Below, in pieces: positions 19,182 through 58,868 of a stretch of DNA of 64,000 bases. A program made the translations under genes and the position numbers. Position 1 is the stretch's first letter, and every line of letters starts with the position of its first letter. The notes below the pieces were generated by a model. It was not told the origin of the DNA. It searched no databases and saw only the letters and a list, made by a program, of their open reading frames with translations. Source of the stretch: Anaerolineae bacterium (GTDB lineage Bacteria > Chloroflexota > Anaerolineae > S140-20); the NCBI GenBank assembly GCA_027021705.1, contig JALUTT010000145.1:827-64826 (forward strand), read 5' to 3'.

Positions 19182-19285
19182 CAATTCGCAACTTGCAACT
19201 TGCAACTTGCAACTTGCAATCTGCAACCTGCAACTTGCAACCTGCAACTTGTAACTTGCACCTTGCACCTTGCACCTTGCAACTT
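19182..19285. repeat. Tandem heptanucleotide array (CAACTTG, with CAACCTG/CACCTTG variants), about 15 copies, in the pckA 5' leader
   Basis: caacttg x4, caatctg, caacctg, caacttg ... caccttg x3. Confidence 0.95.
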
Positions 19286-27966: not shown

Positions 27967-29154
27967 ATGAACAAGAAGACCCTGCGGGACGTGGAGGTGC
28001 AGGACCGGCGCGTCCTGGTCCGCGTGGACTTCAACGTCCCCATTCAAGAGGGACGGGTGACCGATGATACCCGCCTGCGGGCTGCCCTGCCCACCCTCCA
28101 GTACCTGCTGGACCACGGCGCGGCCGTCATCCTGGTCTCTCACCTGGGACGACCGAAGGGGAAGGTCGTGGAGGCTCTGCGGATGGACCCGGTGGCGGCC
28201 CGGCTTTCCGAACTGCTGGGCCGGCCCGTCCGCAAGCTGGATGACTGCGTCGGCCCTCAGGTCGAGGAAGCCGTGGCGGCCATGCAGCCGGGCGACGTCA
28301 TCCTGCTGGAGAACAGCCGCTTCCACCCGGAGGAGCGGGCGAACGACGAGGCTTTCGCCCGTCGGTTGGCGGCTCTGGCCGATCTCTACGTCAACGACGC
28401 TTTCGGCTCGGCCCACCGAGCCCATGCCACAACGGAGGGAGTGGCCCGTGCGATGCGGGCCCAGGGGAAACCGGCGGTCGCCGGTTTCCTGATGGAAAAA
28501 GAGTTGACCTACCTGAGCCGAGCTACCGAGGCCCCCGAGCATCCCTACGTCGTCATCCTGGGCGGGGCCAAGGTCTCCGACAAGATCGGCGTCATCCGCA
28601 ACCTGTTGACCCACTGCGATCGGCTCCTCATCGGGGGGGGCATGGCCAACACCTTCTTCAAAGCCCAGGGCTACGCGATGGCCGATTCCTTGGTCGAGGA
28701 GGAAGCGGTCGAAGATGCCAGGACACTCTTGGAGGAGGCGGAGGAAAAGCTGGTCCTGCCGGTGGACCTGGTGATCGCCGACGCCTTCGCCAACGATGCC
28801 CGGCGGAAGACCATCCCCGTCGGCGATGTGCCCGACGGCTGGCGGGTCTTGGACATCGGTCCGCAAACCCTGGAACGGTTCCGAGAAGCCCTGGAGGGGG
28901 CCCGGCTGGTGGTCTGGAACGGGCCGATGGGGGTCTTCGAATTCCCCAATTTCGCCCAGGGGACCTTCGCCTTGGCCCGTCTCCTGGCCGAGGGCGATGC
29001 GGTGACCATCGTCGGGGGAGGCGATTCGGCAGCAGCCGTCAACCAATCGGGCCTGGCGGACCGGTTCACCCACATCTCCACGGGAGGAGGGGCCAGCCTG
29101 GAGTTCCTGGAGGGGAAGACCCTCCCCGGCGTGGCCGCCTTGGACGATCGGTAG
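27967..29154 (+). CDS. pgk: Phosphoglycerate kinase
   Basis: 395 aa. Canonical N-terminus (RVDFNVP) and C-terminal GGGASLE. Confidence 0.95.
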
Positions 29155-29157
29155 TGT

Positions 29158-29196
29158 CATCCTCCCGCAGGTCATTGGAGGCGCTGCGGGAGGGTC
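29158..29196. repeat. REP-like palindrome (CCTCCCGCAGG / CCTGCGGGAGG arms) immediately after pgk
   Basis: cctcccgcag-gtcattggaggcg-ctgcgggagg. Same arm sequence as the MITE-like elements at 33004 and 57478. Confidence 0.7.
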
Positions 29197-29215
29197 AGTA
29201 GTCGGGAGAAGGGGG

Positions 29216-29917: not shown

Positions 29918-32021
29918 GGTCGGGGAAGCGGTGGAGGAGAGGAGCCTGGCCCAGCCCATCCCAGACGCCCGCATCCTGGTCGTCGAGGATCACGTGGGAA
30001 CGGCCAAGCTGATCAGCCGTCTGCTGGAGAGGGCGGGGTATACCGCCCTGGAGTTCCACAGCGGTGAGGAGGCCCTGGACTTCGTCCAGGCCGTGGCGGC
30101 TGGTCAGGAGCCCCCCATTGATATGGCGATCCTGGATGTGATGATGCCCGGCGTGGACGGCTTCCAGGTCTGCGAGCGGATCCGCCAAACGGATCTGCCC
30201 GGCTACGTGCCGGTGCTGATGCTCACCGCGCTCACCTCGATCCGGGACAAAGTGAAGGGGCTGGACCTGGGAGCCGATGACTACCTGACCAAGCCCTTTA
30301 ACCACCAGGAGCTCCTGGCTCGGGTGCGGGCAGGGCTGCGGGTTCGCCAGGCAGAACAGGCCCTCTACCAGCGCAACCGACAACTGGCAGTCCTCCACCG
30401 GATCACCCAGGCGGTCAACTCCAGCCTGGAACTGGACGATGTGCTGACCATCGCGATGGAGGGGATTCAAGAACTCCTCCACGTCGAAGGGGGGTCTCTG
30501 CTCCTCGCCGACGACAAGCGGCAGACACTGACCTTCGTCCGCGCCTTGAGCCGGAATCGTGTCTCGGTGCTCAACCACACCATCGCCATCGGCGAGGGCC
30601 TCGTCGGCCAGGTGATCCGGGAGGGGCGGTCCATCTTGCTCAACGATCTTCAACAAGACCCTCAGTGGGAGGACTGTTTCAACCGGATTCTGGGGCTCAC
30701 CGCCCGGAACCTCCTCTGCGTTCCCCTGCAAGTCCGGGAGCAGGTCATCGGGGCCATTGGGGTGGTCAACAAGTGGGATGGTCCCTTCACCCCGGAGGAT
30801 CAGGGGATCCTGGAGTTGATGGCGGCTTCGGTGGCGACGGCCACGGAGAACGCCCGCCTCTTCTACGAGTTGGCCTCGGCCTACGCCGGTCTGGAGAGCA
30901 GCCGACAAGCGATTATCGAGCACCGCAACCGGCTCCAAGCTCTCTTCGACGGCATCTCTGACCGTATCTACGTGATAGATGTCAACTATCGCCTGCAAGC
31001 GGTCAACGCTGCTCAGGCTCGATGGTTGGGCAAGAAGCACGACTCACCACTGGAGGGCCTTTGCTACGCTATCCTCTACGGACGCAGGATCCCTTGTGAG
31101 GGATGTCAAGTGATGGCGGCCTTCACCCACCGCACAGTCCAGAGCTGGTCGGAGCGCCGCCGCCGGCCCGATGGACGCCGGGAGGAGTGGGAGATCAATG
31201 CCTACCCGGTCCTCAATCGGGGCGGGGAGGTGGAGCAGGCGATCCTCTTTGTCCGCGATGTGACCAAACAGCGAATGCTGGAGGCCTCGTTGCACCAGTC
31301 GGAGAAGCTGGCCGCGCTGGGCCAACTGGCTGCCGGCCTGGCCCACGAGATCAATAATCCCCTCACCGCCATCCTGGCCAACACCCAGCTCCTCCTGCTG
31401 GATACACCTCCCGAAGACCCCGCCTACGAGTCCTTGGACCTGATCCTGCGGGCCAGTGAACGGGCCATCCGGGTGGTGCGCAACCTATTGGACTTTGCCC
31501 GGCAAGAGGCTTACGATTTCGAGCCGGTAGACCTGAATCAGACGATCCGCAATGCCCTGGACCTGGTGCGCCATCAGTTCGACCTAGCCGGCATCGAGGT
31601 CATCTGCGACCTGGCTCCGGGCCTGCCCCCCGCCTACGCTAGCCGTGATCACCTGCAGAGCGTCTGGCTGAACCTTCTCCTGAACGCCCGGGATGCCCTC
31701 CTGGAGGCCGCTGAGAAGCCTCAGCGCTGGGTGCGGATCACCACATCCATCGAAGCCGACTGGTTGCAGGTCCAGGTGATGGACAATGGTGTGGGCATCC
31801 CGGAGCCCCACCTGAGCCGCATCTTCGAGCCCTTTTTCACCACCAAGGCCCCCGGCAAAGGGACCGGTCTGGGCCTCTCCACCTCTTATCAGATCATCCA
31901 GCAGCACCAGGGCCAGATCCTTGTGGACAGTGACCCGGATCAGGGGACGACTTTCACGGTGCTTCTACCGACCGCCAGCCGCAGACCGCCGACCAGGCGG
32001 CCAAGCGGCCAAGCGGCCTAG
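29892..32021 (+). CDS. Hybrid sensor histidine kinase with N-terminal receiver, GAF and PAS domains (REC-GAF-PAS-HisKA-HATPase_c)
   Basis: ILVVEDHV...[11 protein letters not shown] receiver. H-box [11 protein letters not shown]. HATPase G-boxes. Start uncertain (29892 ATG overlaps the regulator gene by 26 nt). The 3' end is encoded by a short tandem-repeat tract. Confidence 0.8.
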
Positions 32022-32116
32022 CGACCTAGCGACTCGGCGGCGAACTGAGGACCGGGGACTGAGGACCGAGGACTACCTGGCCAAGCGACCATCCGACCAA
32101 AGCGAGGAGTGAGACG

Positions 32117-32887
32117 ATGCGCAAACCCATCATCGCCGGAAACTGGAAGATGCACAAGACGGTCGCCGAAGCAGTCCAGATGATCCGGGAGTTGATCCCG
32201 GCGCTGGCGTCGGTGGACCCGGAGGCGGTAGATGTGGTCGTCTGCCCGCCCTTCACCGCGCTCCAGGCGGTGCGCGAGGCGATTGGTCCGGCCCCCATCG
32301 GCCTGGGGGCGCAGAACATGCACTGGGAACCCCAAGGCGCTTTCACCGGCGAGATCTCCCCCCGGATGCTCAAGGAGCTCTGCCAGTACGTGATCATCGG
32401 CCATTCGGAGCGGCGGCAGTACTTCGGTGAGACGGATGAAGGGGTCAATCGGAAGCTCCAGGCGGCATTGGCCCACGGCCTGACGCCCATCGTCTGCGTG
32501 GGGGAGAACCTGGAGCAGAACGAGGCCGGGCGGACAGAGGCGGTTGTGGGCGGACAGGTGCGGGCCGCCTTCGCCGGCCTGACGGCCGAGCAGGCTCAGC
32601 AGGTGATCTTGGCCTACGAGCCCATCTGGGCCATCGGCACGGGAAAGCCGGCCACGGGACCGGGAGCCAACGCCATCATCGCCCAGGCGATCCGAGGCAC
32701 GCTGGCCGACCTCTATGGGGAGACGGTGGCCCAGGCGATCCGGGTCCAGTACGGGGGGAGCGTGAAGCCCAACAACATCGCCGAATTCATGGCCCAGCCA
32801 GAGATTGACGGGGCCCTGGTGGGCGGAGCATCCCTCAAGGCAGAGAGCTTCGCCGGCATCATCCGCAACGGTCTGGCCGCCCTGTAA
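32117..32887 (+). CDS. tpiA: Triosephosphate isomerase
   Basis: 256 aa. IAGNWKMHK. AYEPIWAIGTGK active-site loop. Confidence 0.95.
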   Translation: MRKPIIAGNWKMHKTVAEAVQMIRELIPALASVDPEAVDVVVCPPFTALQAVREAIGPAPIGLGAQNMHWEPQGAFTGEISPRMLKELCQYVIIGHSERRQYFGETDEGVNRKLQAALAHGLTPIVCVGENLEQNEAGRTEAVVGGQVRAAFAGLTAEQAQQVILAYEPIWAIGTGKPATGPGANAIIAQAIRGTLADLYGETVAQAIRVQYGGSVKPNNIAEFMAQPEIDGALVGGASLKAESFAGIIRNGLAAL

Positions 32888-33003
32888 CGTTGTGGGGGGC
32901 GGAATCGGGTTCGGTGTCCCCGCTGCACGCCGATACGCGGTAGGCGCTCAGCCGTGCGCTCCTCCTTTGGGCCGGTTCTCACGGCGCAGCAGGTTTTATC
33001 AGC

Positions 33004-33124
33004 GTAACTGTTCACCCTCCCGCAGGTTAGGCGCATTTCCGACGCGAAACCGTGCTTCCAATAGCCCATCGGGGCTGAAGGCGCCCTCGACCGGTGACCT
33101 GCGGGAGGGTAGGCTGAATAGATA
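33004..33124. mobile_element. MITE-like non-autonomous element, about 121 bp, with about 25-bp imperfect terminal inverted repeats containing the CCCTCCCGCAGGT/ACCTGCGGGAGGG palindrome, flanked by a 9-bp direct repeat (TTTATCAGC / CTTATCAGC)
   Basis: Near-identical copy at 57478-57593. Direct repeat at 32995-33003 and 33125-33133. Confidence 0.7.
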
Positions 33125-33137
33125 CTTATCAGCAACG

Positions 33138-33938
33138 GTGGACAGCCTCCTCCTTGCCTCCAACGGTCGCCTGGAACTACTCCTCTTGGGGGTTGTGCTC
33201 ACCTTCTCAGCCCTCTGGTTCGTCGTGCGCTGGATCCACCGCCACTTGCAGGGCGTGGCCCTGCTGTTGACCGGCGATCCCGACATCGCTCTCTACCTCT
33301 ACGCCCTCTTGCTCTTCCCCGGCGTTCTCCTCCACGAGCTGAGCCACTGGCTGGTGGCTCGGGCGTTGGGCGTGCGCACGCGGGGATTCTCCCTGCGCCC
33401 TGCGGCCACATCCCAGGGGGCAGTCCAGTTGGGCTTCGTCGTCATCCAGCGCACCGATGTCGTCCGCTCCAGCCTCATCGGCCTGGCCCCCCTCCTGTCG
33501 GGCATCGGGGTGGTCCTGCTCATCGGGCAGCAGGTCTTCGCCGTTGAGCGGATCGCCGGGGCCCTGGTCGCCGGCGACCTGGGCCGGGCGCTGGAGGGGG
33601 CTGTCGCCGCCTTCCAGGTCCCTGATGCCTGGCTCTGGCTCTACCTCGTCTTCGCCGTCAGCAACGCCATGCTTCCCAGCGCCTCCGACCGTTCCGACTG
33701 GGGGGCGCTGGCTTTGCTCCTCCTGTCCGGTGGTGCGCTCTTCTTCTTGTTCCAGGACGGTGAGCGAGGGGGGCTCTATCGGCTGCTCCAGGGGTGGATA
33801 CCCTCCCTGGAGGCGGGCCTGGCACTTCTGACCATGGCCTTCGGGACGACGCTGGCCGTGGACCTCCTCTTCGCCTTCATCATCGGCCTGCTGGAGCAGC
33901 TCATCGGCGGGCTCCGGGGACGGCGGGTGGAGTATTAG
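33138..33938 (+). CDS. Membrane protein with HExxH motif (M50/site-2-protease-like putative metalloprotease)
   Basis: HELSHW within a hydrophobic core. Several transmembrane helices. Start uncertain: GTG at 33138 is the first start downstream of the inserted element, and the frame is open upstream through the element. Confidence 0.5.
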   Translation: MDSLLLASNGRLELLLLGVVLTFSALWFVVRWIHRHLQGVALLLTGDPDIALYLYALLLFPGVLLHELSHWLVARALGVRTRGFSLRPAATSQGAVQLGFVVIQRTDVVRSSLIGLAPLLSGIGVVLLIGQQVFAVERIAGALVAGDLGRALEGAVAAFQVPDAWLWLYLVFAVSNAMLPSASDRSDWGALALLLLSGGALFFLFQDGERGGLYRLLQGWIPSLEAGLALLTMAFGTTLAVDLLFAFIIGLLEQLIGGLRGRRVEY

Positions 33939-35604: not shown

Positions 35605-35689
35605 CAACCCGCTCCTCCGCGTCAGAGTGTGGTGACCTCTCGCTGCCATAGGGCAGATATGTCGGATGTCAGCTGCCTGACCGTGGTCA

Positions 35690-35784
35690 CCCTCCCGTAG
35701 GTCACGTGGTGCCCGGCGACGGCCACAGCTTATCGGAGGCTGCCTATGATCTGCTTCAGGCCGTGGGGGGAACCTGCGGGAGGG
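35690..35784. repeat. REP-like inverted-repeat element (CCCTCCCGTAGGT ... ACCTGCGGGAGGG) with a divergent interior
   Basis: Arms at 35690-35702 and 35772-35784. Same palindrome family as 29158, 33004 and 57478. Confidence 0.6.
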
Positions 35785-35929
35785 TCCCCCGGATTGTACC
35801 TCAACCTCCCTCCCCGGTCAACTATCTGGTGATGACCCTGGGTGGTCACCAGGGTCAACCATCGGTGGGCGGTGACAGCCCGGCGTGGTATAATCTCTTC
35901 GCCGGCCATCCAATTACCTCTGGCATACG

Positions 35930-39636: not shown

Positions 39637-40177
39637 GAGTGTGACCAAAATGGGTTGGAGGCGGTAGAAGCGCAACGCCCCTGCATCTTTCCCCCAACAG
39701 CCTCCGATCACGCTCGGTCCAAAAGCCCCCGGAATCACTGAAGCACTGAGGGAAGTGAAGACACTGAGCCGTCGTCTCCCATCCGTTCAATCCGTTCCCC
39801 AATCCGTTGACAGCTCGTCCGCTCCGGCCACGGCGAGAGACACAAAGGGCACCAAGAGCTCAAAGGGCACGAAGCGGTGCGAAAGGCTGGACAAGCCCTC
39901 TTGGGAGCACCACCCCCCCATCCGTTCCAAATCCGTTCAATCCGTTCCCAATCCGTTGACAGCTATCCGTTCCCCAATCCGTTGACAGCTTGTCCGTCCG
40001 CCAACCAAGCCCTCAGAATCACTGACGCACTGAGGGAGGTGAAGACACCGAGCCTTGGGCAGTGCGGCCCAGGTCGTCGGCAAGGCCGTGACCCGACGCC
40101 GGGGAGGGAGTGCATCACTCCTCAGTGAGCTCATTTCTCTCAGCGCTTCAGTGGTTCAACAGCTTTTGGTCACGCTC
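39637..40177. mobile_element. Complex MITE-like element, copy 1 (541 bp), with about 15-bp terminal inverted repeats (GAGTGTGACCAAAA / TTTTGGTCACGCTC), an internal AATCCGTT/TTGACAGCT-rich tandem unit, and a 9-bp direct repeat (ATGTCCAAC / ATATCCAAC)
   Basis: Direct repeats at 39628-39636 and 40178-40186. Same family as 53890-54780. Confidence 0.75.
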
Positions 40178-46596: not shown

Positions 46597-46650
46597 GTAG
46601 TCGGGTGGTCGGGTGGTCGCTTGGTCAGGTGGTCAGGTGCTCGTTTGCTC
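46597..46650. repeat. Heptamer-periodic array (GGTCRNN), the inverted counterpart of the array at 48020-48110
   Basis: gtcgggtggtcgggtggtcgcttggtcaggtggtcagg is the reverse complement of cctgaccacctgaccaagcgaccacccgac at the other border. Confidence 0.8.
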
Positions 46651-46684
46651 AGATAGCGTCGGAATGTGAAACCTGATTACCTCC

Positions 46685-48019: not shown

Positions 48020-48110
48020 CGCTGACCGCCGACCGCCGACCATTCGACCAGGCGACCACCTGACCACTCGACCAAGCGACCACCTGACCACCCGACCAAA
48101 TTATAACCGC
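48020..48110. repeat. Heptamer-periodic array (CGACCRN), the inverted partner of the array at 46597-46650
   Basis: cgaccgc cgaccgc cgaccat tcgacca ggcgacc acctgac cactcga ccaagcg accacct gaccacc cgaccaa. Confidence 0.8.
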
Positions 48111-52308: not shown

Positions 52309-53535
52309 TCATTGCTTCTCGTAAGGCTTGCCGATGGCCGCCGGCGGGATGGAGCGCCCGATGACGCCGGCCAGGACGATGACGGTGAGCACATAGGGGA
52401 CCATCTGGAGGAACTCGGCGGGGATGCCCACCCCCAGGATCTGCATCTTGTCCTGGAGGGCATCGGCGAAGCCGAAGAGCATCCCGGCTCCCAGCCCACC
52501 CAACGCCGTCCACTTGCCGAAGATGAGGGCGGCCAGCGCGACGAAGCCCTTGCCGTTGGTCATCGCGTCCTCGAAGCGGCCCACCTCGCCCAGGGAGAAG
52601 TAGGCCCCACCGATGCCGGCGATCAGCCCGCCGATGAGGACGTTGATGTAGCGGGTGCGGTTGACGTGGACGCCCAAGGTGTCGGCGGCCTGGGGATGCT
52701 CGCCCACCGCCCGCGTGCGCAGCCCCCACCGGGTGTGAAAGAGGACGACGTGGACGATGACCACCAGCACCATCATCAGGTAGACCGTCGGCTGGTGCAG
52801 GAAGAAGATGGGGCCGATGAAGGGAATCTTGGAGAGGCCGGGGATGGCGAAGGCGGTGAAGGTTCCCGGCGCGTTGTGGCCGCTGGGCGTCAGCAGCCGG
52901 ACGTTGAGGTAGCGGGTCGCCCCCACGGCCAGGATGTTGATGACGGTGCCGCTGATGATCTGGTCCACCTTGTAGCGGATGGAGAGGACGGCGTGCAGGG
53001 CGGCCATCAGGGCGCTGACCAGCATGGCCGCGCCGACGCCCACCCAGTGGCTGCCGCTGAGGGAGGCGGCGGCGACGGCGGTGAAAGCTCCGGTGAGCAT
53101 CATCCCTTCAATGGCGATGTTGATGACGCCGGAACGCTCGCACCAGAGGCCGCTGAGGGCTCCCAGCACCAAGGGGGTGGACCGCACGATGGACTCGCGA
53201 AGCATCCCCAGCAGGCTCAGGCTCCGCCCCCGGGTGAGCCAGACCAGGAAGGCGCTCACGATGAAGAGGGAGACCAGCCCCAGCAGCAGGTCGCTCCAGC
53301 GGTCTCCCTTGGCCCACTGAACGCCGGCGGCGAAGAGGGAGAGCAGGGCCAGGACGTAGAGGGCGGCCCGGGTGGGCAGGGTGACCAGCGGAGTGTCGGC
53401 GTCGAATTGGGTGAAGGCGGAGCGGTGGGCCGGCGTCACCGTCAACGCGGTCACCAGCAGGATGATGATCCCGCCGGCCAGGAAGAGCAGGCTCAGCAGT
53501 CGCTCGCGGGGGATCCCCTTGGATGTTGGACTCAC
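52309..53535 (-). CDS. ABC transporter permease, BMP/nucleoside-type (paralogue of the gene at 56195-57457)
   Basis: 408 aa polytopic. Shares CERSGVINIAIEGMML and other blocks with 56195-57457. Confidence 0.82.
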   Translation of the reverse strand: MSPTSKGIPRERLLSLLFLAGGIIILLVTALTVTPAHRSAFTQFDADTPLVTLPTRAALYVLALLSLFAAGVQWAKGDRWSDLLLGLVSLFIVSAFLVWLTRGRSLSLLGMLRESIVRSTPLVLGALSGLWCERSGVINIAIEGMMLTGAFTAVAAASLSGSHWVGVGAAMLVSALMAALHAVLSIRYKVDQIISGTVINILAVGATRYLNVRLLTPSGHNAPGTFTAFAIPGLSKIPFIGPIFFLHQPTVYLMMVLVVIVHVVLFHTRWGLRTRAVGEHPQAADTLGVHVNRTRYINVLIGGLIAGIGGAYFSLGEVGRFEDAMTNGKGFVALAALIFGKWTALGGLGAGMLFGFADALQDKMQILGVGIPAEFLQMVPYVLTVIVLAGVIGRSIPPAAIGKPYEKQ

Positions 53536-53630
53536 TTCGGCATATCTCCTTGCTTCTGACCTTGAGCTTCGCCTCAGGCGACCGTCTCCTTCCGGGTTCC
53601 GTCTGGGACAAAGGCACCAGGATGCCTTGG

Positions 53631-53867
53631 CTATTTGGGGGGCGGAGCTACCAGGATTCTTGCCTGGACCGATTCCAGGAAGAAATCCCGCAGGAACGTG
53701 CTCGCGTTCAAAATCTCGATGCCAATGAGTTCGCCTCGATCGTTCAACTCGGCGGTCACGTTGGGATGGATTTCGACGCTGCCCGCTTCTGGTTCATCGG
53801 AGAAAGCGAGGTGCAGGACATCCTCTTGCTCAAAATACACCATCCGGGTCGTCCTCTTGTCGCTCAT
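53631..53867 (-). CDS. DUF2283-like small protein
   Basis: Start trimmed to MSDKRTTRMVYFEQEDVLHLAFSD...GELIGIEILNAS (DUF2283 pattern). Confidence 0.5.
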   Translation of the reverse strand: MSDKRTTRMVYFEQEDVLHLAFSDEPEAGSVEIHPNVTAELNDRGELIGIEILNASTFLRDFFLESVQARILVAPPPK

Positions 53868-53889
53868 GCAAGTACCTCTGATTTCAAAC

Positions 53890-54780
53890 GAGTGTGACCA
53901 AAATGGGTTGGAGGCGGTAGAAGCGCAACGCCCCTGCATCTTTACCCCAGCAGCTTCCGGTCACGCTCGGTTCAAAAGCCCCCGGAATCACTGACGCACT
54001 GAGGGAAGTGAAGACACTGAACCGTCATCCCCCATCCGTTCAATCCGTTCCCCAATCCGTTGACAGCTCGTCCGCTCCGGCCACGGCGGGAGACACGAAG
54101 GACACCAAGAGCTCAAAGAGCACGAAGCGGTGCGAAGGTCTGGACAAGCCCTCTTGGGGGCACCACCCCCCCATCCGTTCCCAATCCGTTCAATCCGTTC
54201 CCAATCCGTTGACAGCTATCCGTTCCCCAATCCGTTGACAGCTCGTCCGCTCCGGCCACGGCGGGAGACACGAAGGACACCAAGAGCTCAAAGAGCACGA
54301 AGCGGTGCGAAGGTCTGGACAAACCCTCTTGGGGGCACCACCCCCCCATCCGTTCCCAATCCGTTCAATCCGTTCCCAATCCGTTGACAGCTATCCGTTC
54401 CCCAATCCGTTGACAGCTCGTCCGCTCCGGCCACGGCGGGAGACACGAAGGACACCAAGAGCTCAAAGAGCACGAAGCGGTGCGAAGGTCTGGACAAACC
54501 CTCTTGGGAGCACCAACCCCCCATCCGCTCCAAATCCGTTCAATCCGTTCCCAATCCGTTGACAGCTATCCGTTCCCCAATCCGTTGACAGCTTGTCCGT
54601 CCGCCAACCAAGCCCTCAGAATCACTGACGCACTGAGGGAGATGAAGACACTGAGCCTTGTGCAGGGCGGCCCAGGTCGTCGGCAAGGCCGTGACCCGAC
54701 GGTGGGGAGGGGGCACACAACCCCTCAGTGAGCTCATTTCTTTCAGTTGCTCAGTGATTCAACGGCTTTTGGTCACGCTC
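53890..54780. mobile_element. Complex MITE-like element, copy 2 (891 bp), with the same terminal inverted repeats as 39637-40177, about 3.5 internal ~175-bp tandem units, and a perfect 9-bp target-site duplication ATTTCAAAC
   Basis: ATTTCAAAC at 53881-53889 and 54781-54789. Terminal repeats gagtgtgaccaaaa / ttttggtcacgctc. Each internal unit has three TTGACAGCT and multiple ATCCGTT. Confidence 0.8.
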
Positions 54781-54957
54781 ATTTCAAACTTCCTCACGAC
54801 AGCGCTTGCCGTCTTGTCATCTGCGCAAAATGTCTCAAAATCCATTCCCTCTACAAATGTCTCGATGCTCTCCATGGCGGCTAGGATGTCCTTCAGGTAC
54901 AATCGGTAGTCTCTCATATCGGTACGACCTCCGACAGTACCCCCAAACCGTCCTTTG

Positions 54958-56160
54958 CTACGCTCCCCACCCCCGGCTGAAGACGACTTCCTCTTCCTCG
55001 ACCCGCCGGGGCGGGCGCAGGCGGAAGAGCCCTCGGATGATGGCAGGGGCGGCAATGAAGATGATGACCATCGCCTGGACGATCTGGACGATCTCGATGG
55101 GGATGGAGGCGACGGACTGCATCCGGGTGCCGCCGGCCCGCAGGAAGCCGAAGAGCAGCGCGGCCAGGGTGACGCCCAGGGGGTGGCTCTTGCCCAGCAG
55201 GGCCAGGGCGATGCTGTCGAAGCCGTAGCCGGCCGAGAAGCCCAGCGCCATGTTGTGGGTCACGCCCAGCACCTGGACGGCACCCGCCATCCCCGCCAGC
55301 GCTCCGCTCAGGAACATGGCCAGGACGAAGCTGCGGGCGACGTTGATGCCCCCGTAGCGGGCTGCGTTGGGGTTGGCCCCCACCGTCCGCAGCTCGAAGC
55401 CCCACACCGTCTTCCAGAGGAACCACCAGACGAAGAAGGCGGCTGCCAGGGCGATGAAGAAGCCGGCGTGGAAGCGGATGGGGTGGGGCAGGAAACGGGG
55501 CAGGACGGCCGTGGGGGCGATCTCCGGCGTGCGGGCGGTTCCCTTCATCCCCTCCATCGGCCCGTTGAGGAGCCACTCGCTCAGCTTGAAGGCGATGTAG
55601 TTGAACATAATGGTGTTGATCACCTCGTGGGCTCCGGTGCGGGCCTTCAGGTAGCCGGGGACGGCCCCCCACAGCCCGGCGCCGACGATGCCGGCCAGGA
55701 GGGCCAGGGAGACGTGGAGCAGGGCGGGGAGGCCGGTGACGGCGTAGCCCACGTAGGCGGTGCAGAGCCCACCGATGACCAATTGGCCTTCGGCCCCGAT
55801 GTTGAAGAGGCCGGCCCGGAAACCGAGGGCGACGGCCAGCCCGGCGAAGATGTAGGGCACCGAGTTGACCAGGCTCTCGCTGAAGGGGCGCAGGGCCGAA
55901 TAGAGCTTGCGGGGGTTCCCACTGCTGCGCCACTCGCCGAAGGCGCTGGTGATACGGGCCGGGCTGCCAAAGGCCCCCTCGAAGAGGGTGACGTAGGCTT
56001 GCCAGGCTTTCTGGCCGGCCAGCTTGAGCACTTGGCCGGCCGGCTCTTGCCCCGTCGCCTCGATCACCTCGGGGTCGGTGACGATGACGATGAGGCCGGC
56101 GATGAGCAATGCCGTGAGGACGGCCAGGACCGGGACGGTGAAGGTCGTCAGTTTGCGCAT
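54958..56160 (-). CDS. ABC transporter permease, BMP/nucleoside-type (paralogue of the gene at 57594-58868)
   Basis: Start trimmed to MRKLTTFTVPVLAVL. Polytopic. Confidence 0.8.
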   Translation of the reverse strand: MRKLTTFTVPVLAVLTALLIAGLIVIVTDPEVIEATGQEPAGQVLKLAGQKAWQAYVTLFEGAFGSPARITSAFGEWRSSGNPRKLYSALRPFSESLVNSVPYIFAGLAVALGFRAGLFNIGAEGQLVIGGLCTAYVGYAVTGLPALLHVSLALLAGIVGAGLWGAVPGYLKARTGAHEVINTIMFNYIAFKLSEWLLNGPMEGMKGTARTPEIAPTAVLPRFLPHPIRFHAGFFIALAAAFFVWWFLWKTVWGFELRTVGANPNAARYGGINVARSFVLAMFLSGALAGMAGAVQVLGVTHNMALGFSAGYGFDSIALALLGKSHPLGVTLAALLFGFLRAGGTRMQSVASIPIEIVQIVQAMVIIFIAAPAIIRGLFRLRPPRRVEEEEVVFSRGWGA

Positions 56161-56194: not shown

Positions 56195-57457
56195 TCAGGC
56201 TTTCTCGTAGGGTTGACCGTCGGCGGCGGGCGGGATGGCGCGGCCAACGATGCCGGCCAGCGTGATCATCGTCGCCAGGTAGGGAGCCATCAACAGGAAC
56301 TCCGAGGGGATGGGGACCTTGAGGATGGCCAGCTTCGTCTGCAGGGAGTCGGCCAGGCCGAAGATGAGGGAGGCGGCGAAGCCCCCGAAGGGGTTCCACT
56401 TGCCGAAGATCATCGCGGCCAGGCCGATGAAGCCCTTGCCGGCCGTCATCACCTCGTCGAAGCGGCCCACGGACCCCAGGGTGAAGTAGGCCCCGCCCAG
56501 GCCGGCGATGCAGCCGCCGATGATGACGTTGACGTAGCGGGTGCGGAAGACGTTGATGCCCAGCGTGTCGGCCGCCTTGGGATGCTCCCCCACCGCCCGC
56601 GTGCGCAGCCCCCAGCGGGTGTAGAAGAGCACGACGTGGGTAATGATGACCAGCAGGAGCGTCAGGTAGACGACCAGGTTGGTGTTGAAGAAGACCGGCC
56701 CCAGCACGGGGATCTTCGCCAGCAGGGGGATGGGGACGGGGCGGAAGTTGACCGAGGCGTTGAGGCGCTCGTTGGTCGCCAGCCAGCTCGCGCTCAGAAA
56801 GCTGGTCAGCCCCACGGCGAAGATGTTGATGGCCGTGCCCGCGACGATCTGGTCTACTTTGAAACGGATGGCCAGGACGGCCAGGACGGCGGCCAGCAGG
56901 CCGCCGGTGATGAGGGCCACGATGAGCCCCAGGAGCAACCCGGTCGTCGTCCCCAGCCCCCAGATGTTCTGGGCTGCGCTGGAGACGATGACGCTGGTGA
57001 AGGCGGCGCTGAGCATCATCCCCTCGATGGCGATGTTGATGACCGCCGAGCGCTCGCACCAGACGCCGCTCAGGGCGCCCAGGGTGATGGGGGTGGCCCG
57101 CAAGAGGGTGCTGACCAACATCCCCGTCAGGCTGAAGGATTTACCCCGGGCCGCCCAGGTGAGAAAGGCGAAGACGAAGACCAGGAGCAGCGTGCCCAGC
57201 ACGGCGTTGACCGCTCTGAAGCCGCGCACGAGCTGCCAGCCGCCGACGAAGGCGCACAGCAGCCCCAGCACGTAGATGGTTGTCCGGGTCGGCAGTACCA
57301 AGTCGGGCACCGGGATGGGCGGCGTCTTGGTCACGAGGTTGAGCACGAAGGTCGAGCGCTGGTCGGGGGCCGCATCCGGTCCGAAAAGGTAGATGATCGC
57401 AATGCCGATGAGGGCGAAGACCACCCCCATCGCCCGGTCACGGCGCTTCGTAGGCAT
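56195..57457 (-). CDS. ABC transporter permease, BMP/nucleoside-type
   Basis: 420 aa polytopic. CERSAVINIAIEGMML. Confidence 0.82.
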   Translation of the reverse strand: MPTKRRDRAMGVVFALIGIAIIYLFGPDAAPDQRSTFVLNLVTKTPPIPVPDLVLPTRTTIYVLGLLCAFVGGWQLVRGFRAVNAVLGTLLLVFVFAFLTWAARGKSFSLTGMLVSTLLRATPITLGALSGVWCERSAVINIAIEGMMLSAAFTSVIVSSAAQNIWGLGTTTGLLLGLIVALITGGLLAAVLAVLAIRFKVDQIVAGTAINIFAVGLTSFLSASWLATNERLNASVNFRPVPIPLLAKIPVLGPVFFNTNLVVYLTLLLVIITHVVLFYTRWGLRTRAVGEHPKAADTLGINVFRTRYVNVIIGGCIAGLGGAYFTLGSVGRFDEVMTAGKGFIGLAAMIFGKWNPFGGFAASLIFGLADSLQTKLAILKVPIPSEFLLMAPYLATMITLAGIVGRAIPPAADGQPYEKA

Positions 57458-57477
57458 TCTCGTTCCTTAACGTTCCT

Positions 57478-57593
57478 GTAACTGTTCGCCCTCCCGCAGG
57501 TTAGGCGCGTTTCCGCCGCGAAACCGTGCTTCCAATAGCCCATCGGGGCTGCAAGCACCCTCGACCGGTGACCTGCGGGAGGGTAGGCTGAAT
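57478..57593. mobile_element. MITE-like element, copy B (same family as 33004-33124), sitting in the permease-permease intergenic gap and abutting the upstream gene's stop codon
   Basis: About 95% identical core. Arms ccctcccgcaggt at 57489-57501 and acctgcgggaggg at 57571-57583. 3' end diverged, with no clean target-site duplication. Confidence 0.7.
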
Positions 57594-58868
57594 TTATGCT
57601 CCCCATCCCCGGGTGAAAACCGGTCCGACCTCTTCCCGCTCTTCCCGCAGCCGGTAGAGCCAGCGGATGATGGCCGGCGCGGCGACGAAGACGATGACCA
57701 TCGCCTGAACGATCTGGATGATGTCAATGGGGATGCGGGCGCTGGACTGCATACGGATGGCTCCGGCCCGCAGGAAACCCCACAGCAGGGAGGCCAGGAC
57801 CACGCCCAGAGGGTGGCTCTTGCCCAGCAGGGCCAGGGCGATGCTGTCGAAGCCATAGCCGGAGGAGAAGGCCTGGGCCATAAAGTGGTTCACCCCCAGC
57901 ACCTCGTTGGTGCCGGCCAATCCGGCCAGCGCCCCGCTCAGGGCCATCGCCAGGACGAAGTTGCGGGTCACGCTCATCCCGGCGTAGCGGGCCGCGTTGG
58001 GGTTGGCCCCCACGGTCCGAATCTCGAAGCCCAGCGTTGTCTTCCACAGGAACCAGTAGACCAGCCAGGCCACCCCTAGGGCGACGAAGAAGCCGGCGTG
58101 GAAGCGCAATGGGTCGGGGAAGAAGCGGGGTAGGTAGGCGCTGGGCAGGATCGGGGGGCTGACGGGGTTGAAGCCGGAGCGCTGCATCGGCCCGGTCAGC
58201 AGCCAGTCGCTGAGCCGGAAGGCGATGTAGTTCATCATAATGGTGTTGATGACCTCGTGGGCTCCCGTCTTGGCCTTCAGGTAGCCGGGGATGGCTCCCC
58301 AGACCGCCCCGCCCAGGGCGCCGGCCAGCAAGGCCAAAGGCAGGTGGAGGAGCCAGGGCAGGCCGGTGATGGTGTAACCCACCCAGGTGGAAACGAGGGC
58401 TCCGATGAAGAGCTGCCCTTCCGCCCCGATGTTGAAGAGGCCACACTGGAAGCCCAGGGCGACGGCCAGCCCGGCGAAGATGTAGGGGGTGGTGGCGACC
58501 AGGCTCTCGCTCAGGGGGTAGAGGGCCTGGAGCAGCCGAGCGTTGCCACGCCCGGCCAGCCAGTCGGCCAGCCCACCGATCAACTCCTTCGGATTGCCGA
58601 TGGAGCCCTCCAGCAGCGCCCCATAGGCGTCCAGGAGCCGGGCAGCGCTCAGGCGCAGGGCCTGACCCGGAGCCTGGAAGAAGCGCCCCCAGGCCCCCAG
58701 CACTTCGGTGTCGGAGATGAGGATGAAGATGCTGCTGATGACGAGGGCGGTGACGATGGCCAGCACGGGGATGAGGAGGGACCGGAGCCAGGCCGACCAG
58801 CGTCGAGGACGCCGGGGCACGGGCGCTTCGACCGGTTCCCTCTCAACGGCGATCTCTGCCTGGGCCAT
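57594..58868 (-). CDS. ABC transporter permease, BMP/nucleoside-type
   Basis: 424 aa polytopic. Confidence 0.82.
   Translation of the reverse strand: MAQAEIAVEREPVEAPVPRRPRRWSAWLRSLLIPVLAIVTALVISSIFILISDTEVLGAWGRFFQAPGQALRLSAARLLDAYGALLEGSIGNPKELIGGLADWLAGRGNARLLQALYPLSESLVATTPYIFAGLAVALGFQCGLFNIGAEGQLFIGALVSTWVGYTITGLPWLLHLPLALLAGALGGAVWGAIPGYLKAKTGAHEVINTIMMNYIAFRLSDWLLTGPMQRSGFNPVSPPILPSAYLPRFFPDPLRFHAGFFVALGVAWLVYWFLWKTTLGFEIRTVGANPNAARYAGMSVTRNFVLAMALSGALAGLAGTNEVLGVNHFMAQAFSSGYGFDSIALALLGKSHPLGVVLASLLWGFLRAGAIRMQSSARIPIDIIQIVQAMVIVFVAAPAIIRWLYRLREEREEVGPVFTRGWGA

Follow-up and report, generated by a model that had tools for sequence, protein, structure and literature searches.

The short repeat that lies between tpiA and an M50-like metallopeptidase gene in the window (the whole 64-kb stretch of Anaerolineae DNA that was analysed) is very probably a MITE, a non-coding and non-autonomous DNA transposon, the outermost 11-16 bp of which match the ends of insertion sequences (ISs) belonging to the ISBst12 group of the IS66 family. 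Both its ends and its 8-bp target-site duplications match those of ISBst12-group ISs, which identifies it as a non-autonomous DNA transposon, and it is most likely moved in trans by an ISBst12-type DDE transposase. This reading is supported by the identity of its ends with IS ends, by the 8-bp duplications, by the many copies found in many Anaerolineae genomes and by one presence/absence difference. The element itself is of an ordinary and well-known kind. The family to which it belongs is large, abundant in Anaerolineae (Chloroflexota) and undescribed so far, and constitutes a new family; the only point that goes beyond routine is a hairpin cargo common to several MITE types.

The copies in the window and their neighbouring genes

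The element between tpiA and the M50-like gene (copy 1, Table 1) starts with GTAACTGTTCACCCTCCCGCAGGTT and ends with ACCTGCGGGAGGGTAGGCTGAATAGATAC. A preliminary description of this DNA had recognised the element and put it at 121 bp; it is one base longer, at 122 bp, because the terminal C is part of the GTTAC end of the family. The 9-bp direct repeat given there carries one mismatch, the perfect unit being the 8-mer TTATCAGC, and the imperfect terminal inverted repeats of about 25 bp were found as described. These extend over ~25-30 bp, the left reading GTAACTGTTCA-CCCTCCCGCAGGTT and the right, as reverse complement, GTATCTATTCAGCCTACCCTCCCGCAGGTC, with 8 of the 11 outer positions matched, a 5-nt indel and a perfect inner stretch of 13-14 bp (up to 15 across the family). 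The spacer between the two 15-nt arms measures 67 nt, and a GTAGGC bulge separates the right arm from the right outer terminal repeat. The predicted fold of copy 1 reaches -58 kcal/mol (z = -4.7 against shuffles). Copy 1 is short (<300 bp) and non-coding, the only ORFs crossing it being spurious read-throughs in DNA of 66% G+C, and it matches the family profile over its full length (model positions 1-121, E = 1e-17). It looks transposition-competent. The search for a clean empty site for copy 1 was unsuccessful, the related genome L109 having an extra methyltransferase gene at this position.

Table 1. Positions in the window of copy 1 and its parts, of the other family copies and of the M50-like gene
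Feature	Position	Strand	Basis
MITE copy 1, intact, 122 bp	33004-33125	+	sequence and foreign-copy profile
Target-site duplication, left, 8 bp, TTATCAGC	32996-33003	.	same 8-mer on either side of copy 1
Target-site duplication, right, 8 bp, TTATCAGC	33126-33133	.	perfect match to left 8-mer
Copy 1 outer terminal repeat, left, GTAACTGTTCA	33004-33014		
Copy 1 15-nt arm, left, ACCCTCCCGCAGGTT	33014-33028		
Copy 1 15-nt arm, right, GACCTGCGGGAGGGT	33096-33110		
Copy 1 outer terminal repeat, right, TGAATAGATAC	33115-33125		
MITE copy 2	57478-57599	+	109/115 identical to copy 1 (94.8%); profile match
Copy 3	35680-35793	.	arms, 69-nt spacing, profile match
Probable internally deleted relic	29151-29206	.	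arms and degenerate termini; weak profile matches
M50-like metallopeptidase gene	33138-33938	+	weak Peptidase_M50 match; GTG start, 266 aa, HELSH motif

According to Pfam matches, the neighbours of the family copies are, on the + strand, pgk, genes for a response regulator and a histidine kinase, tpiA and the M50-like gene, further the divergent upp and ruvB, and a pair of - strand genes for branched-chain amino-acid permeases. The GTG start of the M50-like gene lies 4 nt beyond the right target duplication of copy 1. It had been proposed that the insertion displaced the original start of this gene, for which no ATG could be seen. However, the gene reads from GTG at 33138 for 266 aa, and the start was not displaced because the L109 orthologue (88% identical, 266 aa, start GTG GAC), which has the methyltransferase gene in place of the element upstream, shares both start and length. 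Other orthologues have 238-282 aa, mostly 250-266, one of them being named M50 family metallopeptidase and several carrying PF13398, and in a conspecific MAG the gene is called identically and the same element is present. The long ORF that runs across copy 1 (32805-33938) is an artefact of the 66% G+C content. For annotation, the element accounts for the apparently missing start codon and the long, spurious ORF, and it flags repeats at which assemblies of Anaerolineae break; the readings of the glycolytic operon and of the protease gene are unchanged by it. The methyltransferase gene of L109 (2966-4243), located between tpiA and the M50-like gene, encodes a 425-aa protein of the cyclopropane-fatty-acid-synthase type and is missing in the window; a supposed remnant of it in the tpiA-M50 spacer of the window was rejected, the alignment being noise.

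Further copies were sought with a profile for which 27 foreign copies and none from the window were used, and which recovered copies 1, 2 and 3 together with weak matches at 29.2 kb and nothing beyond these in the window. Copy 2, previously reported at 57478 as 95% identical to copy 1, agrees with that report (Table 1). Its right terminus is degenerate or truncated, the last few bases having diverged, its target duplication is absent, and the profile match stops at 57592 (model positions 1-113). It occupies the gap between the two permease genes, and the TAA stop of the permease gene upstream of it (57594-57596, - strand) falls within its terminal positions. This permease ends in RGWGA*, as does its paralogue, so that the gene is intact and copy 2 only abuts the stop codon. 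Copies 1 and 2 lie on the same DNA strand, whereas the genes around copy 1 are on the + strand and those around copy 2 on the - strand; the two copies are therefore oppositely oriented relative to transcription, as had been noted. The region around copy 2 contains two adjacent paralogous sets of branched-chain amino-acid ABC-transporter genes (52316-55851 and 56202-58481) with 70-82% DNA identity, and only the second set has a MITE between its permease genes.

Two further sites in the window had been taken for stand-alone REP-like hairpins, an assignment that neither of them bears out. The first (35690-35784) is a third full-length core, copy 3, with arms CCCTCCCGTAGGT at 35690-35702 and ACCTGCGGGAGGG at 35772-35784, the 69-nt spacing of these 13-mers being exactly that of copies 1 and 2. 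Its interior has diverged and is unrelated, ISBst12-type termini and duplication are unrecognisable, and the profile match (E = 3e-4) covers model positions 9-105, i.e. the element without its termini. Copy 3 is a decayed copy of the MITE family and has no ends. It sits in the divergent upp-ruvB spacer, and the ~117 bp that it occupies are absent from the orthologous spacer of L109, an 88%-related genome, and present in the conspecific MAG L110. The same spacer differs between the two related genomes by two other small palindromic insertions, an extra hairpin of ~40 bp in the window (35811-35850) and an extra element of ~85 bp with ends G[TC]GTGACC[AG]AAA in L109 (6873-6960).

The second hairpin (29158-29196, after pgk) is probably an internally deleted copy of the family. 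Its arms, TCCTCCCGCAGGT (29160-29172) and CTGCGGGAGGG (29184-29194), enclose a loop of 11 nt and are flanked by degenerate termini reading GTAGTGTCA and, as reverse complement, GACTACTGA; the profile matches at this site are weak and non-significant (E 0.26-7). The TAG stop codon of pgk (29152-29154) is inside the left terminus GTAGTGTCA, a degenerate sequence that stands in for the GTAA start of the family. A GTAA start would itself provide a stop codon to any gene reading into the element.

The 13-mer CCCTCCCGCAGGT and its complement recur at 35690/35772 and, shortened, at 29160/29184. When as many as two mismatches are allowed, the window has 21 occurrences where 7.1 +/- 2.3 are expected; no shuffle reached 21, and the element copies account for the excess. 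The palindrome had been proposed to define a REP/MITE family; it does mark the family, whereas the outer 11-16 bp are the likely transposase recognition site instead. The family had also been described as concentrated in intra-operon gaps, which is true of three of the four window copies, these lying between co-directional genes. None of the four disrupts a gene, all being located in short intergenic gaps, where two of the copies immediately adjoin a stop codon, and a target duplication is seen within the window only at copy 1.

Such locations would be expected if the hairpins were RNA elements selected by the host (3'-end stabilisers, processing sites or operon insulators) that ride on transposon ends and are kept because they are useful. 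The position of three window copies between co-directional genes, the two that abut stop codons, the G+C-rich helix of 13-15 bp that forms the stem and the preservation of its pairing by compensatory changes are all consistent with this idea. However, the hairpins have no T-run or terminator-like tail, selection on stability alone leaves the conservation of arm sequence in most lineages unexplained, and location in gaps is equally expected from purifying selection against insertions in genes. Host-selected hairpins of this kind are very unlikely to be the correct explanation, and the MITE reading is preferred.

Termini and the ISBst12 group

The consensus terminus of the family is GTAACTGCTCAGCC, which starts with GTAA and comprises the outermost 11-16 bp. 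Ends of the IS66 family start with GTAA and are accompanied by 8-bp repeats (PMC11946415), and ISDge4 of Deinococcus geothermalis, a member of the ISBst12 group of this family, is reported to carry the ends GTGACTACTCAGCA / GTAACTGCTCAGCA together with an 8-bp direct repeat (PMC12898284). ISGka4 of the Geobacillus plasmid pHTA426 encodes a single IS66-like transposase of 485 aa; its ends, read from the annotated sequence, are GTATCTATTCAGCCCAGTAC and GTAACTATTCAGCCCGTAC (outer GTATCTATTCAGCC... / GTAACTATTCAGCC...), with the 8-bp duplication GACGAGTT. The right terminus of copy 1, GTATCTATTCAGCC, agrees with the outermost 14 bases at one end of ISGka4 in every position (14/14). The element thus shares with the ISBst12 group (ISBst12, ISGka4 and ISDge4) the terminus GTAAC(T)(R)(Y)TCAGCC, at 14/14 positions for ISGka4 and 13/14 for ISDge4, in addition to the GTAA-starting ends and the 8-bp target duplication. 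The two differ in that the ISs are ~1.6 kb long with a transposase gene and no fold-back module, whereas the element has 122 bp, no transposase gene and a fold-back interior.

A protein search with the ISGka4 transposase returned a large set of metagenomic relatives of ~494 aa with DDE_Tnp_IS66 domains. Among the metagenomic ISs, one (P0187) is 1598 bp long, encodes a DDE_Tnp_IS66 protein of 493 aa and has a perfect 16-bp terminal repeat, GTAACTGCTCAGCCTG, which is the consensus terminus of the MITE family. Its contig also carries GrpE, all named homologues of which are from Anaerolineae, Thermoflexia or Chloroflexota and share 64-78% identity with it; this tie of a TIR-identical IS to Anaerolineae consists of one contig, which also contains a nested IS110. 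The same host has a 160-bp element with the same end type and the duplication ATTCTTTG between hrcA and grpE. Core-type copies were found neither in the ~20 kb around grpE of a relative of this host nor in the host's own 6 kb. A related IS, P0212, shows the 8-bp duplication CTTTTGTT. An abundant ISBst12-type IS (P0147/P0264) was considered as a candidate partner and rejected, as its host is an archaeon, which indicates that the ISBst12 group is widely spread.

Neither the 64-kb window nor the 108 listed loci with an arm pair yielded a transposase gene of the ISBst12 group. These loci were searched for lone arms, for long-range pairs of terminal repeat plus duplication and for an IS66 motif by regular expression, as well as by tblastn with ISGka4 and by blastn and tblastx with the metagenomic ISs, all with negative results. 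In the proposed mechanism, an ISBst12-group DDE transposase encoded elsewhere in the genome would bind both ends of the element, excise it and insert it at a staggered 8-bp cut, the repair of which would give rise to the 8-bp duplication. The fold-back module may pull both ends together in single-stranded DNA, or may form a very stable hairpin in transcripts that cross the element. Genes for ISBst12-group transposases (L117, 1020-1075; L111, the ISGka4 gene) contain ACCTGCGGGAG, which encodes a conserved H-L-R-E motif; the 11-nt match of this sequence to the MITE arm is probably due to chance.

Metagenomes were also scanned with the exact outer ends only (GTAACTGCTCA, 85-115 nt, TGAGCAGTTAC), which yielded at least 120 elements. 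The 120 that were listed (L151-L270) are 108-137 bp long, and their interiors form at least 60 clusters; most of the elements fold back, and 52 have a perfect 8-bp duplication. The 15-nt arms occur in only 7-10 of these 120, the others carrying other palindromic modules. Environmental metagenomes thus contain a very large and varied population of fold-back MITEs of ~110-135 bp with ISBst12-type ends, and fold-back cargo is a general trait of the ISBst12-ended MITE superfamily. Another well-conserved palindromic module, GTCATTCCCGC...GCGGGAATGAC, is present in some of the listed elements.

The family in Anaerolineae genomes

A scan of one genome per species for the arm pair at a spacing of 57-87 nt gave at least 108 loci. 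About 90% of the matches listed belong to MAGs of Anaerolineae, Anaerolineales, Thermoflexales/Thermoflexia or Chloroflexota, and these matches come from roughly forty assemblies and many species. Many of the copies among them are at the very ends of contigs, as is expected because repeats break assemblies. The canonical layout consists of the 8-bp duplication, GTAACTGCTCA, C, the core, GTAGGC, TGAGCAGTTAC and the same 8-bp duplication. In the 20 foreign elements with both termini recognisable, the duplication is perfect in 12 and has at most one mismatch in 15, and the 8-mer differs from site to site. The outer 11 bp are perfectly inverted in many foreign copies, compared with 8/11 in copy 1. 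A blastn search of plasmids with the consensus element gave no match, and no description of the element, of ISBst12-derived MITEs or of any MITE in Anaerolineae was found in the searchable literature. Matches in Sphingomonadales (L021, L050, L052, L056, L062, L071, L072, L080 and L095) represent an unrelated nested-palindrome repeat of ~95-105 nt, CCCCTCCCGCAGGCGGGAGGGG ... CCCCTCCCGCCTGCGGGAGGGG, that fits the search pattern by accident.

The gene contexts of the family copies are varied, and both orientations relative to the flanking genes occur; a count of orientation bias was crude and ORF-based, and too small and noisy to use. This distribution bears on the possibility that the element is an RNA, either cis-acting or small (riboswitch, attenuator or sRNA), which has been duplicated incidentally. 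The preliminary description had argued against a riboswitch and had added that a repeat confined to one orientation upstream of one gene class would be better read as a cis-regulatory RNA; the copies were found in both orientations and beside unrelated genes, and its argument is upheld by target duplications at many loci, varied gene contexts, the lack of any Rfam match at E<=5 and the unstructured interiors. An RNA would be consistent with the stable predicted folds of copies 1 and 2 (z = -4.7 to -3.4) and with their placement within operons, in 5' or intergenic regions. However, both strands fold equally well, and the stability derives from the terminal stem, the interiors (n=111) folding no better than shuffles on either strand (mean z = -0.5). 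Furthermore, the interiors are unrelated among subfamilies, and neither the window nor five foreign loci gave an Rfam match at gathering or permissive thresholds. Taken with the target duplications and the unrelated neighbouring genes, these results effectively refute the cis-regulatory or small-RNA reading.

Among known repeats, the Correia elements of Neisseria resemble the element: they too are ~100-150 bp long with terminal inverted repeats, lie between genes in many copies and form a long hairpin in transcripts. However, Correia elements duplicate TA and are not known to be related to IS66, whereas the element has an 8-bp duplication and ISBst12-type ends. In integron attC sites, which occur in arrays between cassettes, the hairpin carries R''(RYYYAAC)...R'(GTTRRRY) at its outer ends. 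An attC site was rejected as an identity for the element, because its GGTT/AACC is found on the inner side of the stem, GTT is not followed by RRRY across the family and its neighbours belong to the core genes.

The inner fold-back module

The inner module consists of two 15-bp arms (ACCCTCCCGCAGGTT / AACCTGCGGGAGGGT) around a spacer of ~65 nt. Conservation of the arms covers exactly 15 nt and falls to background level at the next base on either side, and the base beside CCTCCC co-varies with its partner, whereas the spacers belong to many unrelated subfamilies. The spacing of the arms is bimodal, with values of 66-75 nt and of 7-13 nt. Short-loop forms in other genomes retain the first and last bases of the long interior and are therefore internal deletions, and the hairpin after pgk is read in the same way. 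In one metagenomic relative the arms are ACCCTTGCGAAGGTT / AACCTTCGCAAGGGT, with three changes from the canonical arm, each of which is compensated on the other arm; pairing has therefore been maintained, as has the sequence itself in most lineages. The sequence CCCTCCCGCAGG is absent next to the terminal repeats of the ISBst12-group ISs examined, and since the matching IS lacks the palindrome module, the module is cargo and not a transposase site.

The same module with 15-bp arms is central in at least six other element types that have unrelated outer inverted repeats (e.g. TAGGGCTTTCTCAAAGT, GGCYACCYGACAG and GGGTGCATTTCAA), each type being limited to one or two MAGs and showing, where readable, duplications of 9-12 bp. 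It is also found without recognisable ends, as in copy 3 of the window. No gene associated with the module was found; closely spaced copies (L094, L066) flank HAD hydrolases, NUDIX and LysM proteins, and the genes between such copies were rejected as RAYTs, being ordinary housekeeping genes. One core copy without ends (L088, 192-366) lies between perfect 38-bp direct repeats, far longer than the duplication expected of a DDE transposase. The inner module is a cargo that the transposase model leaves unexplained.

REP units are imperfect palindromes of 20-40 nt with a conserved GTAG/GTGG head, which form doublets known as REPINs and make no target duplication. The inner module, taken by itself, resembles the REPINs of the REP-RAYT systems of Pseudomonas and E. 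coli in its two conserved inverted sequences around a variable spacer of ~65-70 nt (~100 nt in total), its short hairpin-forming derivatives and its persistence across a clade. The module could accordingly be imagined as a real replicating REPIN-like unit, copied by a dedicated single-strand enzyme of the HUH/RAYT type or kept by a host factor, for which ISBst12-type ends are one vehicle. Besides the general likeness, this would fit the sharp edges of the 15-nt arms, the tight spacer length of the long forms, the three fully compensated changes, the occurrence of the module both without ends and inside other element types with different duplications, and the lack of such arms in ISBst12-group ISs. 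However, none of the copies examined had a RAYT or another Y1 transposase nearby, the paired copies flanking housekeeping genes instead; a single arm is not a small palindrome as REPs are, and the hairpin has no GTAG head on its 5' side. In addition, copies with recognisable ends have the clean duplications typical of DDE transposition, canonical copies combining DDE-type ends with 8-bp duplications, and the arms are rare among the listed elements with exact ISBst12 termini. Membership of the REP/REPIN class was rejected on the non-palindromic arm and the 8-bp duplications, and a replicating unit of this type is improbable.

The module as cargo of DDE-mobilised MITEs is the preferred reading. 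More broadly, and still tentatively since it is rather unlikely on balance, the inner module may be an entity of its own in Anaerolineae, a hairpin under structural constraint, as suggested by the compensatory arm changes, that would have been captured independently by at least seven end types and would also persist without ends. If this were true, it would imply either an unrecognised dedicated mobilising enzyme, similar to that of REPINs, or a function at the level of the host that favours carriage by any MITE. Since several MITE types have this hairpin cargo in common, the origin of MITE families and the exchange of modules between them can be tested here on a small scale.

The window contains several other repeats. 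Intergenic arrays of 7-nt tandem repeats, with 11-16 copies each, are present at 247-335, 1906-2014, 2820-2903 and 19188-19285 (GACGTGA, GCGTGAT, AACGTGA and GCAACTT). A 175-bp unit is repeated 3.2 times with 98% identity at 54043-54603 and contains short ATCCGTTC sub-repeats, and a related copy is found 14 kb away (39790-40089). Arrays of 8/16/24-nt repeats of the GACCAnnn type occur at 46600-46652, 48030-48099 and 31964-32041, the first two being mutually inverted and 1.4 kb apart.
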